Virus record (IMG/VR): IMGVR_UViG_2522572021_000019
Length of the DNA stretch: 26,196 nt
Origin: a virus
Lineage: Duplodnaviria; Heunggongvirae; Uroviricota; Caudoviricetes
Strand: one strand, 5' to 3'
This document shows, one piece after another, positions 20,962 through 26,196 of this stretch. The translations under genes were made by a program, and so were the position numbers. Every line of letters starts with the position of its first letter. The stretch's first letter is position 1. The notes under the pieces are model-generated. The model was given only the letters and a program-made list of their open reading frames with translations, ran no database searches and was not told the origin of the DNA.

Positions 20962-23900
20962 GTGAATATGGCAGTAAAGATTTCAGGTGTACTGAAAGAC
21001 GGCACAGGAAAACCGGTACAGAACTGCACAATCCAGCTGAAAGCAAAACGTAACAGTACCACTGTGGTGGTGAACACGCTGGCCTCAGAAAATCCGGATG
21101 AAGCCGGGCGTTACAGTATGGACGTTGAGTACGGTCAGTACAGCGTTATTCTGTTGGTGGAGGGATTCCCGCCGTCACATGCCGGGACCATCACCGTGTA
21201 TGAAGATTCTCAACCCGGTACGCTGAATGATTTTCTCGGTGCCATGACGGAGGATGATACCCGTCCGGAGGCACTGCGACGTTTTGAACTGATGGTGGAA
21301 GAGGTGGCGCGTAACGCGTCCGCGGTGGCACAGAACACAGCAGCCGCGAAGAAGTCAGCCAGCAATGCCAGCACATCAGCCCGTGAGGCGGCAACCCATG
21401 CGACTGATGCTGCAGGCTCAGCACGCGCAGCCAGCACGTCAGCCGGACAGGCCGCGTCGTCGGCTCAGTCAGCGTCTTCCAGCGCAGGAACGGCATCAGC
21501 AAAGGCCACTGAAGCATCAAAAAGTGCTGCCGCTGCAGAGTCCTCAAAAAGCGCGGCGGCTACCAGTGCCGGTGCGGCGAAAACGTCAGAAACGAATGCG
21601 GCAGCGTCACAACAATCAGCAGCCACTTCTGCATCCACCGCGACCACGAAAGCGTCAGAAGCAGCCACTTCAGCACGGGATGCGTCGGCTTCAAAAGAGG
21701 CGGCAAAATCATCAGAAACGAACGCAGCCTCGAGCGCCAGCAGCGCAGCTTCCTCGGCAACGGCGGCAGGAAATTCCGCGAAGGCGGCAAAAACGTCCGA
21801 GACGAACGCCAGGTCTTCTGAGACGGCAGCGGGACAGAGCGCCTCAGCTGCGGCAGGCTCAAAAACAGCGGCTGCGTCGTCTGCCAGTGCCGCGTCAACA
21901 AGTGCCGGGCAGGCCTCAGCCAGTGCCACCGCCGCCGGAAAATCGGCAGAAAGCGCCGCATCATCCGCTTCAACAGCCACAACGAAGGCTGGCGAAGCCA
22001 CTGAACAGGCCAGCGCAGCAGCGAGTTCTGCTTCCGCAGCGAAGACATCCGAAACGAACGCGAAAGCGTCGGAAACCAGCGCAGAATCCTCAAAAACGGC
22101 TGCCGCATCGTCAGCCAGTTCGGCGGCGTCATCGGCCTCATCGGCGTCTGCTTCAAAAGATGAGGCGACCAGACAGGCGTCAGCAGCGAAGGGCAGCGCC
22201 ACGACGGCATCCACGAAGGCGACAGAGGCTGCTGGTAGTGCGACGGCAGCAGCTCAGAGCAAAAGTACGGCGGAATCTGCAGCAACGCGCGCTGAGACAG
22301 CGGCAAAACGGGCAGAGGATATTGCATCCGCCGTGGCGCTTGAGGATGCGAGCACGACGAAAAAGGGGATAGTACAGCTCAGCAGTGCGACCAACAGTAC
22401 GTCTGAAACGCTGGCGGCAACGCCAAAGGCAGTAAAATCAGCCTATGACAATGCAGAGAAACGTCTGCAGAAAGACCAGAACGGCGCTGATATACCCGAT
22501 AAGGGACGCTTCCTGAACAACATTAACGCGGTCAGTAAAACAGACTTTGCTGATAAGCGTGGTATGCGTTATGTGCGGGTTAACGCTCCTGCAGGTGCAA
22601 CATCTGGAAAATATTACCCTGTTGTTGTTATGCGTTCTGCTGGCTCAGTAAGCGAACTGGCATCAAGGGTCATTATCACCACGGCAACGCGAACCGCAGG
22701 CGATCCGATGAATAACTGCGAGTTTAACGGATTTGTTATGCCTGGTGGCTGGACTGACAGGGGGCGTTATGCTTATGGAATGTTCTGGCAATATCAAAAC
22801 AATGAACGAGCCATCCACTCAATAATGATGAGTAATAAGGGCGATGATTTGCGCTCTGTGTTCTATGTTGATGGCGCTGCTTTCCCTGTTTTTGCGTTTA
22901 TCGAAGATGGCCTGTCAATATCCGCACCTGGTGCTGATCTCGTTGTTAATGATACGACCTATAAGTTTGGGGCAACAAATCCAGCGACTGAATGTATCGC
23001 GGCGGACGTTATCCTTGATTTTAAGAGTGGGCGTGGTTTTTATGAGTCTCATTCGTTAATCGTTAACGATAACTTGTCGTGCAAAAAACTTTTTGCCACA
23101 GACGAAATTGTAGCGCGTGGTGGTAATCAGATTCGAATGATAGGTGGGGAGTATGGTGCATTATGGCGTAATGATGGCGCTAAAACTTACCTGCTGCTTA
23201 CCAATCAAGGTGATGTTTATGGTGGCTGGAATACATTAAGACCGTTTGCTATTGATAACGCAACCGGCGAGCTGGTTATTGGAACCAAACTGTCCGCAAG
23301 TCTGAACGGTAATGCATTAACAGCAACAAAGCTGCAAACGCCAAGACGGGTTTCTGGTGTTGAGTTTGATGGTTCCAAAGATATTACTTTAACCGCCGCG
23401 CATGTGGCTGCTTTTGCCAGAAGAGCAACGGATACGTATGCCGATGCGGATGGGGGCGTTCCATGGAATGCCGAATCAGGCGCTTACAATGTCACCCGCT
23501 CTGGCGACAGCTATATTCTGGTTAACTTCTATACCGGAGTCGGAAGTTGCCGGACCCTGCAGATGAAGGCGCATTACAGAAATGGAGGTCTGTTCTACCG
23601 TTCCTCAAGAGATGGCTATGGTTTTGAGGAAGACTGGGCAGAAGTTTATACCTCGAAAAATCTTCCACCAGAAAGCTACCCAGTCGGCGCACCAATCCCG
23701 TGGCCATCAGATACCGTTCCGTCTGGTTATGCCCTGATGCAGGGGCAGACTTTTGACAAATCTGCATACCCGAAACTTGCAGCCGCTTATCCGTCAGGCG
23801 TGATCCCTGATATGCGTAGCTGGACGATTAAGGGCAAACCTGCCAGTGGTCGGGCCGTATTGTCTCAGGAACAGGACGGCATTAAATCGCACACCCACAG

Positions 23901-24321
23901 CGCCAGCGCATCCAGTACGGATTTGGGGACGAAAACCACATCGTCGTTTGATTACGGCACTAAATCCACGAATAACACCGGGGCGCATACGCACAGTGTG
24001 AGCGGTACAGCCGCAAGTGCCGGAAACCATACTCATAGTGTCACAGGCGCATCAGCAGTCAGCCAGTGGTCACAAAATGGGTCAGTACATAAGGTAGTGT
24101 CTGCGGCCAGTGTGAATACAAGTGCTGCAGGAGCGCACACTCATAGTGTTAGCGGCACAGCCGCATCTGCAGGTGCTCACGCACATACTGTCGGTATTGG
24201 TGCTCATACGCACTCTGTTGCGATTGGCTCACATGGACACACTATCACCGTTAACGCTGCTGGTAACGCGGAAAACACCGTCAAAAACATCGCATTTAAC
24301 TACATTGTGAGGCTTGCATAA
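20962..24321 (+). CDS. stf: Side tail fibre protein, Stf-like (1119 aa)
   Basis: Conserved N-terminal anchor, a roughly 330-residue Ala/Ser/Thr repeat tract (KTSETNA-type units), and a C-terminal module with repeated HTHSV/HxH motifs typical of phage fibre tips. Confidence 0.9.
21322..22330 (+). repeat. About 1 kb of degenerate in-frame short tandem repeats encoding the Ala/Ser/Thr-rich shaft of the tail fibre
   Basis: Repeated GCN/TCN/ACN-rich units; they generate long spurious ORFs in other frames and on the opposite strand (21365..22372, 21465..22214, 21560..22327). Confidence 0.7.
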
Positions 24322-24896
24322 TGGCATTCAGAATGAGTGAACAACCACGGACCATAAAAATTTATAATCTGCTGGCCGGAACTAATGAATTTATTGGTGA
24401 AGGTGACGCATATATTCCGCCTCATACAGGTCTGCCAGCAAACAGTACCGATATTGCACCGCCAGATATTCCGGCAGGCTTCGTGGCTGTTTTCAACAGT
24501 GATGAGGCATCGTGGCATCTCGTTGAAGACCATCGGGGTAAAACGGTTTATGACGTAGCGTCAGGGGACGCGTTATTTATTTCTGAACTCGGTCCGTTAC
24601 CGGAAAATGTTACCTGGTTATCGCCGGAAGGGGAGTTTCAGAAGTGGAACGGCACAGCCTGGGTGAAAGATGCAGAAGCAGAAAAACTGTTCCGGATCCG
24701 GGAGGCGGAAGAAACAAAAAACAGCCTGATGCAGGTAGCCAGTGAGCATATTGCGCCGCTTCAGGATGCTGCAGATCTGGAAATTGCAACGGAGGAAGAA
24801 ATCTCGTTGCTGGAAGCATGGAAAAAGTATCGGGTATTGCTGAACCGTGTTGATACGTCAACTGCACAGGATATTGAATGGCCAGCACTGCCGTAG
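24321..24896 (+). CDS. tfa: Tail fibre assembly chaperone, Tfa-like (191 aa)
   Basis: [17 protein letters not shown]... with conserved C-terminus ...[29 protein letters not shown]. Start overlaps the stf stop (TAATG). Confidence 0.9.
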
Positions 24897-24993
24897 GGTA
24901 AAACATATAAATTCTATAATTAGATGTATCTTTCCATTTACGGCAAGGAAGGGGGCTTGGAAGACGTAAAGCATCTCACACCAAGATTATTTT

Positions 24994-25584
24994 TTATATG
25001 TCAGGTGTCTGAAGTTTTGCTTTGGCTCTTAAAATGGTTTGCCGCGAGGTTTTGAATTCCCGGGCAATGGCACTTATACTTACACCTGACTTAATCCGTT
25101 CGAATACCACCTGTTTCTGTTCTTCATTTAACACAGGTGGTCGACCAAAACGTTTCCCTGCGCCCCGGGCTCTTACTATCCCGGAATGAGTGCGTTCAAG
25201 TAAAAGGTCTCGTTCAAATTCAGCGACTGCTGAAATTACTTGCATCATCATTTTTCCTGTTGGACTGGTCAGGTCAATGCCCCCCAATGCTAAGCAATGC
25301 ACTCTGATACCTGTTTCGGTCAGTTGTTCCACTGTTTTCCTGATATCCATTGCATTACAACCAAGGCGATCCAGTTTTGTCACAATCAATTGATCACCAC
25401 ATTTCAGGCGAGCAAGCAACCGGTTAAAACCAGGACGCTCACTGGTTGCTGCTGAGCCGCTAATGTGTTCTTCGATTATTTGCTGAGGTTTGATTTTAAA
25501 ACCTGCACTTTCGATTTCCCGGCGTTGATTTTCGGTGGTCTGATCCAGCGTTGATATCCGACAGTAAGCAAAAATTCGAGACAT
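24994..25584 (-). CDS. Small serine recombinase, resolvase/invertase family (196 aa)
   Basis: N-terminal catalytic region YCRISTLDQ (active-site Ser) and [12 protein letters not shown], plus a C-terminal helix-turn-helix ([19 protein letters not shown]). The N-terminus does not resemble the Pin/Gin/Hin group as I recall it. Confidence 0.9.
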
Positions 25585-25962
25585 AGTGAGACTCTATACG
25601 AAATTGGTGTACATATCATAATGCATATCCAAAAATTATTTCGCTTATTATTGTACATATTTGTATGTATACGTTCGAAAATAAACGAATTCGGATGCAG
25701 TCCCGTAATTTTGGTGTAACCAAAAATCGATTTTTTGAAAAATGGCTTTAACTCGGTTTGTTTTTCGAACTCCGGGCGGACTCGAGGAAGACGAATAATA
25801 GTGTTGTATGTTATTTCAACCAGATTTTAAGTTGTTTGGTCGTGGAAAAGTGGAGCAAAATGTTGTTAAAGTGGAAAAATGGTAAAAAAAGTAGGTTGTT
25901 GCGGAATAACGTAGTTGTTGATATTTTTTTAATGCATTGAAAAATTATTTTTCAGGGGGGTA
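25585..25962. promoter_or_regulatory. AT-rich intergenic region upstream of the recombinase gene with direct repeats and dyad symmetries
   Basis: TGTACATAT at 25608-25616 and 25652-25660; TTTTGG-N5-CCAAAA at 25709-25725 overlapping the perfect 14-bp palindrome AAAAATCGATTTTT at 25722-25735; GTGGAAAA at 25842-25849 and 25871-25878. G+C looks near one third by eye. Confidence 0.4.
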
Positions 25963-26196
25963 TTACACTTTACCATTTAAATTTTGGTTGTCTTTAAGAA
26001 CTGATATCGCTGTTTGTAATAATTCTTTGTTATCCAGCCATGACTTTTTCTTTATGTTTCCTTCAATGTAATCAAGCAATGTTCTGGTATTGATAGGTCT
26101 TCCCTGTTTTGCTACTTCCACGACAGCATCTCCCAGGATAATTCTGACTTCAGGAAGCTGCGCAGGGAACCACTTTAGGGTGTCTTTTGATTTCAT
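25963..26196 (-). CDS. Hypothetical small protein (77 aa) in AT-rich sequence
   Basis: ORF-track protein MKSKDTLKWFPAQLPEVRIILGDAVVEVAKQGRPINTRTLLDYIEGNIKKKSWLDNKELLQ... with no family I recognise. Its ATG is the last three bases of the window, so the N-terminus may be incomplete. Confidence 0.4.
   Translation of the reverse strand: MKSKDTLKWFPAQLPEVRIILGDAVVEVAKQGRPINTRTLLDYIEGNIKKKSWLDNKELLQTAISVLKDNQNLNGKV

Follow-up and report, generated by a model that had tools for sequence, protein, structure and literature searches.

Which DNA does the small serine recombinase of this lambdoid phage recognize, and are the overlapping dyad symmetries upstream of its gene part of it? The window, that is, the whole stretch of 26,196 bp that we have analyzed, belongs to the late-gene region of the phage, and its final 1.3 kb have 99.9% identity to Escherichia phage Lambda_2H10. 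The ATG of the recombinase gene is found at 25584 on the minus strand, and the dyads are located 125-151 nt upstream. The initial annotation described TTTTGG-N5-CCAAAA (25709-25725), which overlaps a perfect 14-bp palindrome (25722-25735), and proposed that they form a crossover site or an autoregulatory operator. Both dyads read as described, with TTTTGG at 25709-25714 and CCAAAA at 25720-25725. The two direct repeats reported in the same intergenic region are also present: TGTACATAT at 25608-25616 and 25652-25660, and GTGGAAAA at 25842-25849 and 25871-25878. The features of the locus are collected in Table 1.

Table 1. Features of the recombinase locus. Positions are those of the window; res sites are named by their equivalents in related transposons, and the intact transposon is the one found in plasmid pCFSAN004180G.
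Feature	Position	Strand	Description
stf	20962-24321	plus	
tfa	24321-24896	plus	
Degenerate 38-bp terminal inverted repeat, tnpR side	24948-24985		Just 3' of pinR; aligns with both GGGGTCCGCTTGGAAAACGGAAAATATCCCACGCTAAG repeats of the intact transposon
pinR/pinQ-type small serine recombinase gene	24994-25584	minus	196 aa; Pfam Resolvase and HTH_7 domains
Spacer between pinR and ydfK	25585-25962		378 bp; 33% G+C
res site III equivalent	25595-25616		Half-sites TATACGAAA (25595-25603) and TGTACATAT (25608-25616), in the same orientation
Putative -10 hexamer of the pinR promoter	25615-25620	minus	TATGAT; colinear with relatives
res site II equivalent	25626-25657		32 bp; TATCCAAAA ... TATTGTACA; length and position as site II of the intact transposon
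res site I equivalent	25672-25697		26 bp; CGTTCGAAA-N8-ATTCGGATG; centre 25684-25685; presumed crossover site
Dyad 1	25709-25725		TTTTGGT-GTA-ACCAAAA; 7-bp arms, 3-nt spacer
Dyad 2	25722-25735		AAAAATCGATTTTT; 14 bp, the longest perfect palindrome in the window
Third dyad	25730-25743		ATTTTTTGAAAAAT; overlaps AAAAATCGATTTTT
ydfK/ynaE-type gene	25963-26196	minus	77 aa; bounds the intergenic region; RefSeq 'cold shock protein YdfK' in K-12 Rac

The spacer between pinR and ydfK is a common feature of Escherichia coli: It is present in 2,800 of 5,426 complete genomes, and no annotation falls within it among the E. coli records listed. Neither six-frame translation nor blastx against PinR and TnpA has detected any hidden gene in 25698-25962. 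The ydfK/ynaE-type gene matches PHROG 2718 (function unknown). A homolog is found in a Salmonella phage in which pinR is absent; homology ends at the stop codon, and only the ydfK coding sequence is common to both. The ydfK side of the spacer has some features of its own. Degenerate tandem units of about 30 bp, GTTGTT-N4-5-GTGGAAAA(A/G)TGG, are found in 25833-25945, with four copies of GTTGTT and two of GTGGAAAA; this array is iteron-like and about 90% conserved in K-12. The dyad with the longest arms in the spacer (8 bp) is TGAAAAATTATTTTTCA at 25938-25954, located 9 nt past the stop codon of ydfK, on its 3' side; in K-12 Rac, unrelated sequence replaces the region around it (25901-25962). 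On the other side of pinR, the 3' end of tfa (24800-24862, plus strand) has a partial match to Rfam IS009, with 54.7 bits, below the gathering score of 117.

The recombinase is the PinR/PinQ protein of the Rac and Qin prophages of K-12, and its gene has 99.3% nucleotide identity to Rac pinR. Outside these prophages, it has a counterpart in a TnpR protein, 84% identical over 193 aa, which is encoded beside a 'Tn3 family transposase' of 995 aa on plasmid pCFSAN004180G. The plasmids which carry this TnpR are E. coli IncF plasmids, and copies of related transposons are found in 1,738 plasmid records, mostly from Klebsiella. The transposon in pCFSAN004180G (28586-32386) is intact: It is 3.8 kb long, has perfect 38-bp terminal repeats, GGGGTCCGCTTGGAAAACGGAAAATATCCCACGCTAAG, and the order tnpR-res-tnpA. 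Its architecture is that of Tn5403, a putative name which we have taken from the architecture rather than from the sequence. A paper on Klebsiella also annotates 'Tn5403-pinR' (PMC13253593). The recognition-helix region (HTH) of PinR is nearly unchanged when compared with the intact TnpR, so a change in specificity appears unlikely.

Other relatives, with 60-78% identity to PinR, are found in Shewanella, Photorhabdus, Erwinia, Mycoavidus, an Oxalobacteraceae metagenome-assembled genome (MAG) and Parasedimentitalea. A conserved array of TGTMCGAAA / TTTCGKACA half-sites is found upstream of the gene in each of them, and several have a divergent gene whose product contains an N-terminal DUF4158 domain, as found in Tn3-family transposases. 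The Erwinia oleae locus (L016, 1270-2650) contains two divergent PinR-like paralogues, with res-like half-site arrays for each of them in between. We should also note that pinR loci which are 99-100% identical to those of E. coli appear in MAGs labelled Alistipes, Draconibacterium and Caldithrix (L004, L007, L008); these are very probably E. coli contamination.

Remnants of such a transposon can be recognized on both sides of pinR. A degenerate copy of the terminal repeat, with its outermost GGGG altered, lies on the 3' side of the gene, and a degenerate res array lies directly upstream. The relatives provided 35 half-sites, from which we have derived a position-weight matrix with a lowest training score of 3.9. 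With this matrix, no head-to-head pair of half-sites other than sites I and II exceeds the threshold in the whole 26-kb window. Site I is colinear with the 26-bp TGTCCGAAACCGGTCATTTTCGGTCA of the intact transposon and with site I of the relatives. Site III is colinear with the tnpR-proximal half-sites of the intact transposon and of six relatives, and its two half-sites share one orientation in all relatives too. Its scores are 11.4 and 3.9 in the window, and 14.8 and 3.9 in the intact transposon; the low score corresponds to the inner half-site in both cases. The first copy of the direct repeat TGTACATAT is precisely this inner half-site, while the second copy merely overlaps the outer end of site II. 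Half-site scores in the window range from 3.9 to 11.4, as compared with 12.2-15.7 for five of the six half-sites of the intact transposon. The res array of K-12 Rac is even more decayed than that of the window.

A promoter for pinR may also be placed in this array. The hexamer TATGAT is aligned with TATAAT or TATGAT in the relatives from Shewanella, Photorhabdus, Erwinia, Mycoavidus, Oxalobacteraceae and plasmids. It was not called in our consensus scan because a good -35 box is absent. The rest of the transposon is missing. The window does not contain tnpA, and a search of 3 kb in phage 2H10 has found no inverted partner of the terminal repeat. By about 25700, homology to intact elements comes to an end. 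Taken together, these three observations indicate that the res array belongs to a remnant.

The resemblance to the res regions of Tn3 and gamma-delta (Tn1000) is close. The TGTMCGAAA consensus is very similar to the gamma-delta half-site consensus, TGTCCGAAAT. There are some differences: Site I is 28 bp long and site II 34 bp long in Tn3 and gamma-delta, as compared with 26 and 32 bp here, and the two half-sites of site III have the same orientation here. Moreover, the copy in the window is degenerate and lacks tnpA and one inverted repeat, and the dyads noted above are found outside the array. The general plan is shared, since the array is directly upstream of tnpR, its subsites are found in the order III-II-I away from this gene, and they are made of inverted half-sites with differing spacings around an embedded promoter, so that resolvase binding would be autoregulatory (PMC7157771). 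In Tn3-type elements, site III is beside tnpR, site I is the crossover site, and the binding of resolvase represses the embedded promoters (PMC7157771).

The comparison with the intact plasmid transposon is more direct. Besides the similarity of both resolvases, its 38-bp repeat and each of the six half-sites have their colinear counterparts in 24948-25697. In the plasmid, on the other hand, tnpA begins about 50 bp after site I, where the window contains unrelated DNA which includes the dyads. The region 25595-25697 is found directly upstream of a gene which is orthologous to the tnpR of transposons with a Tn3-family transposase and terminal inverted repeats; its paired half-sites have different spacings and are arranged from tnpR in the order III-II-I, as in the intact elements. 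Judging from this homology, 25595-25697 is probably the crossover and operator region of the recombinase. In the same way, pinR/pinQ appears to be the tnpR gene of a decayed, fossil Tn3-family transposon, embedded in a lambdoid phage with the tail-fibre assembly gene on one side and ydfK on the other.

If this is correct and the analogy to Tn3 and gamma-delta holds, the recombinase would bind half-sites of the TGTMCGAAA type. Since sites III and II overlap with the promoter of pinR, binding to them would repress this gene. Site I would be the crossover site, with strand exchange at its centre, as we infer from what is known about the Tn3 family (PMC7157771). The suggestion of the initial annotation that the location is suitable for a crossover site or an autoregulatory operator seems appropriate for the intergenic region, where the res array is found. 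It does not extend to the dyads, which begin 12 bp outside site I and whose arms fall below the scores of genuine half-sites.

The dyads are located beyond all homology to the transposon, which indicates that the inherited res does not include them. Similarity to the intact plasmid transposon stops directly after site I, by about 25700; among the listed matches from the 1,738 plasmid records mentioned above, none extends beyond about 25695. No match to 25698-25962 was found in any relative, plasmid or other phage: This DNA occurs only together with pinR. None of the related res regions has a homologous element at the position of the dyads.

The initial annotation also suggested a search for a second copy of the motif in either orientation. 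With up to three mismatches allowed, neither the window nor phage 2H10 (41 kb) contains another copy. Among 2,817 E. coli genomes, each pinR module carries the motif once, and it is absent from the rest of the genome. An exact 18-mer has 101 matches in a pinR context in IMG/VR and 19 in unrelated viral contigs; this recurrence in unrelated contigs is consistent with chance. A missing second site is not an argument against a site of the res type, because res acts on two copies present in a cointegrate or dimer. It does count against an invertase crossover site of the hix, gix or pix type, which we have rejected for the dyads: They are present in a single copy, and no inverted pair brackets an invertible segment.

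We have also rejected the dyads as an inherited res subsite or crossover site. Their arms, the best of which is TAACCAAAA(A), score 1.9-3.4 in the window and less than 2 in the K-12 type. All 35 training sites score higher, and there is no counterpart in related res regions. A weaker version of this proposal is that the dyads represent an extra PinR site, specific for this lineage: an additional (fourth) accessory subsite, for instance, or an operator placed upstream. In fact, TAACCAAAAA-TCGA-TTTTTTGAAA may be read as a 24-bp head-to-head pair of very degenerate half-sites. It has the polarity and roughly the size of a res subsite, only about 20 bp past site I, and a compensatory change is found in the outer pair of the palindrome. 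In addition, TAACCAAAAAT (25717-25727) is identical at 10 of 11 positions to the site II arm TATCCAAAAAT (25626-25636), although we estimate that about three 10/11 repeats would be expected by chance in the region. The low scores of the arms, under those of every real half-site, argue against this proposal, and so does the unchanged HTH of PinR. No relative has a fourth site, because tnpA begins about 50 bp from site I. An additional PinR site is thus unlikely.

The abrupt end of homology right after site I may be viewed in another way: The dyads might be what remains of an operator or promoter which belonged to a passenger or neighbouring module, now lost. A deletion comprising tnpA, or recombination between two res sites, could for instance have joined this module to res at or beside site I. 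In its distal half-site, site I has the CATCCGAA type, whereas the closest relatives have the TGACCGAA type. Passenger toxin-antitoxin operons of the Tn3 family are located just past site I, and hybrid elements arise at this site (PMC7157771). Nevertheless, 25698-25962 has no credible open reading frame or protein similarity in any frame and no homolog outside the pinR module, no promoter-like site is found at the dyads, and ydfK reads towards res rather than away from it. We have also looked for an empty site: Lambdoid phages without pinR share only tfa, up to about 24900. We consider a lost module improbable as the source of the dyads.

Are the dyads unusual in such AT-rich DNA? The initial annotation considered them to be uncommon by chance, and this is correct only in part. 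We have compared them with dinucleotide-preserving shuffles of the spacer, with its 33% G+C. A perfect palindrome of at least 14 bp appears in 306 of 5000 shuffles (6%). Combinations are less frequent: With a minimum arm length of 7 bp, two overlapping dyads are found in 34 of 3000 shuffles (1.1%), and the presence of at least three dyads has P=0.005. There is a nominally significant excess of dyads, which is real yet modest and largely comes from alternating A5/T6/A5 runs, which are broken up by the shuffling.

The base composition of the spacer might suggest that a nucleoid protein of the host (H-NS, IHF or Fis) binds or nucleates at the dyads, and would in this way silence or bend this AT-rich DNA. 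The IHF consensus is WATCARNNNNTTR, and AATCGATTTTTTG matches it at 12 of 13 positions. The high-affinity motif of H-NS is tCG(t/a)T(a/t)AATT, which TCGATTTTTT resembles at 7 of 10 positions. The single mismatch to the IHF consensus affects the conserved CAA, however, and the K-12 type does not keep the TTR part. Neither the IHF nor the H-NS resemblance is conserved there, A-tracts are poor H-NS sites, and the same proposal would suit any AT-rich spacer equally well. A dedicated nucleoid-protein site is hardly likely for these reasons.

Conservation gives limited help. When the window is compared with K-12 Rac, the dyads are 85% identical, res 88%, the flanking DNA 88-90%, ydfK 93% and pinR 99.3%. 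The dyads are no better conserved than their flanks. As res itself is degenerate and evolves like its flanks, an equal divergence does not separate a functional stretch from a non-functional one. We should also mention that, along 24321-26196, the identity to K-12 Rac changes in sharp steps, with 97.7% in tfa, 99.3% in pinR, 88% in the spacer and 93% in ydfK. This pattern suggests a mosaic history, or gene conversion which has homogenized pinR.

The variation of the dyads was read across 83 copies. The 12-bp core of the palindrome, AAAATCGATTTT, is kept in all copies which are not decayed. As its outer pair, the window type has A:T and the K-12 type has C:G, while about 8% of the copies have a broken pair (A:A, A:G or C:A). 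Both main lineages thus hold a perfect 14-bp palindrome, by means of a symmetric double change from A:T to C:G, which we estimate would arise by chance with a probability of roughly 0.04. Dyad 1 is also kept in both lineages with a different spacer; in the K-12 type it has 6-bp arms and a 6-nt spacer. The symmetric change is the sole hint of constraint on the dyads. We have not accepted it as covariation proving a function, since it is a single double change and intermediates with one change exist. A possible consequence should be considered: The dyads beside site I could have been kept by selection after the decay of the transposon, as a new control element of a domesticated PinR/PinQ, because a compensatory change from A:T to C:G would suggest so. 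In such a case, a host or phage factor, or PinR itself, might act at the dyads to gate the expression of pinR or direct its reported anti-phage inversion activity. We consider such selection quite improbable.

The hairpins which the dyads may form are weak, with energies between -2 and -8 kcal/mol and stems which carry at most two G-C pairs; the hairpin of dyad 1 has -4.7 kcal/mol on both strands. The consensus scan called nothing like a promoter or a terminator at the dyads, and Rfam 15 has no covariance-model match at E<=1 in 25585-25962. An intrinsic terminator was rejected: No such site was called, and the stems, with their two G-C pairs at most and energies of -2 to -5 kcal/mol, are not rich in G+C. 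A role as an RNA hairpin, terminator or attenuator, either on a read-through transcript from ydfK to pinR or on a plus-strand transcript from a vestigial promoter on the tnpA side, is very improbable: Hairpin 1 does appear in the centroid fold of the minus strand and persists in both lineages, and the plus strand has a U6 run 5 nt after it, but the stems have only two G-C pairs and reach -4.7 kcal/mol at best, and the fold z-scores (+0.5 for 106 nt, -1.5 for 378 nt) are not significant.

The explanation which we favor is the following. The dyads are part of the junction DNA which replaced tnpA next to site I, and most likely they have no specific function, with a probability of about 0.65. They would be a by-product of alternating runs of A and T, without any sequence-specific role in recombination or in the control of pinR. 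At most, they would contribute the generic properties of AT-rich DNA, such as weak hairpins, curvature and the binding of nucleoid proteins. The homology, the positions, the half-site scores, the pattern of conservation and the copy number are observations, while the lack of function is something we infer, in the same manner as the binding, repression and crossover point proposed above for the res array.

The name of the recombinase gene suggests a comparison with the sites of Hin, Gin, Cin and Pin (hix, gix, cix and pix). The dyads do not resemble these sites: They have no partner copy and do not flank an invertible segment. Dyad 1 has a polarity opposite to that of the hix and gix consensus, with its T-run outward and GG/CC towards the centre, and the ...AAACC arms are missing from dyad 2, whose core is TCGA (4 bp). 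Site I, on the other hand, does have some features in common with them. In the family of PinR resolvases it is also 26 bp long, with a 2-bp core. The pix half-site of e14, TTCTCCCAAACC, shares 9 of 12 positions with ATGTCCGAAACC, a half-site of the resolvase family (L109, the intact plasmid transposon, 3588-3615). Kirigo et al. (2025) have reported that overproduced PinQ and PinR invert the P segment of e14 at TTGGTTTGGGAGAAGG repeats (PMC12529663). They describe PinQ and PinR only as Pin-like small serine recombinases, and Tn3 is absent from their text (PMC12529663). The positions shared by pix and site I make a cross-reaction plausible, which could explain the inversion of the e14 P segment by these proteins.

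In summary, the dyads matter little in themselves, and their context is more useful. PinR and PinQ of the E. coli K-12 prophages have recently been reported as anti-phage DNA invertases (PMC12529663). In the library of papers that we have searched, none states that they come from a transposon. From the comparisons presented here, they appear to be resolvases of a fossil Tn3-family transposon, which still has an inverted repeat and a recognizable res array. Such an origin would explain why no invertible segment is found next to pinR. In any case, work on PinR and PinQ may start from the res array, in which specific binding sites are predicted and which is a candidate for an autoregulatory operator.
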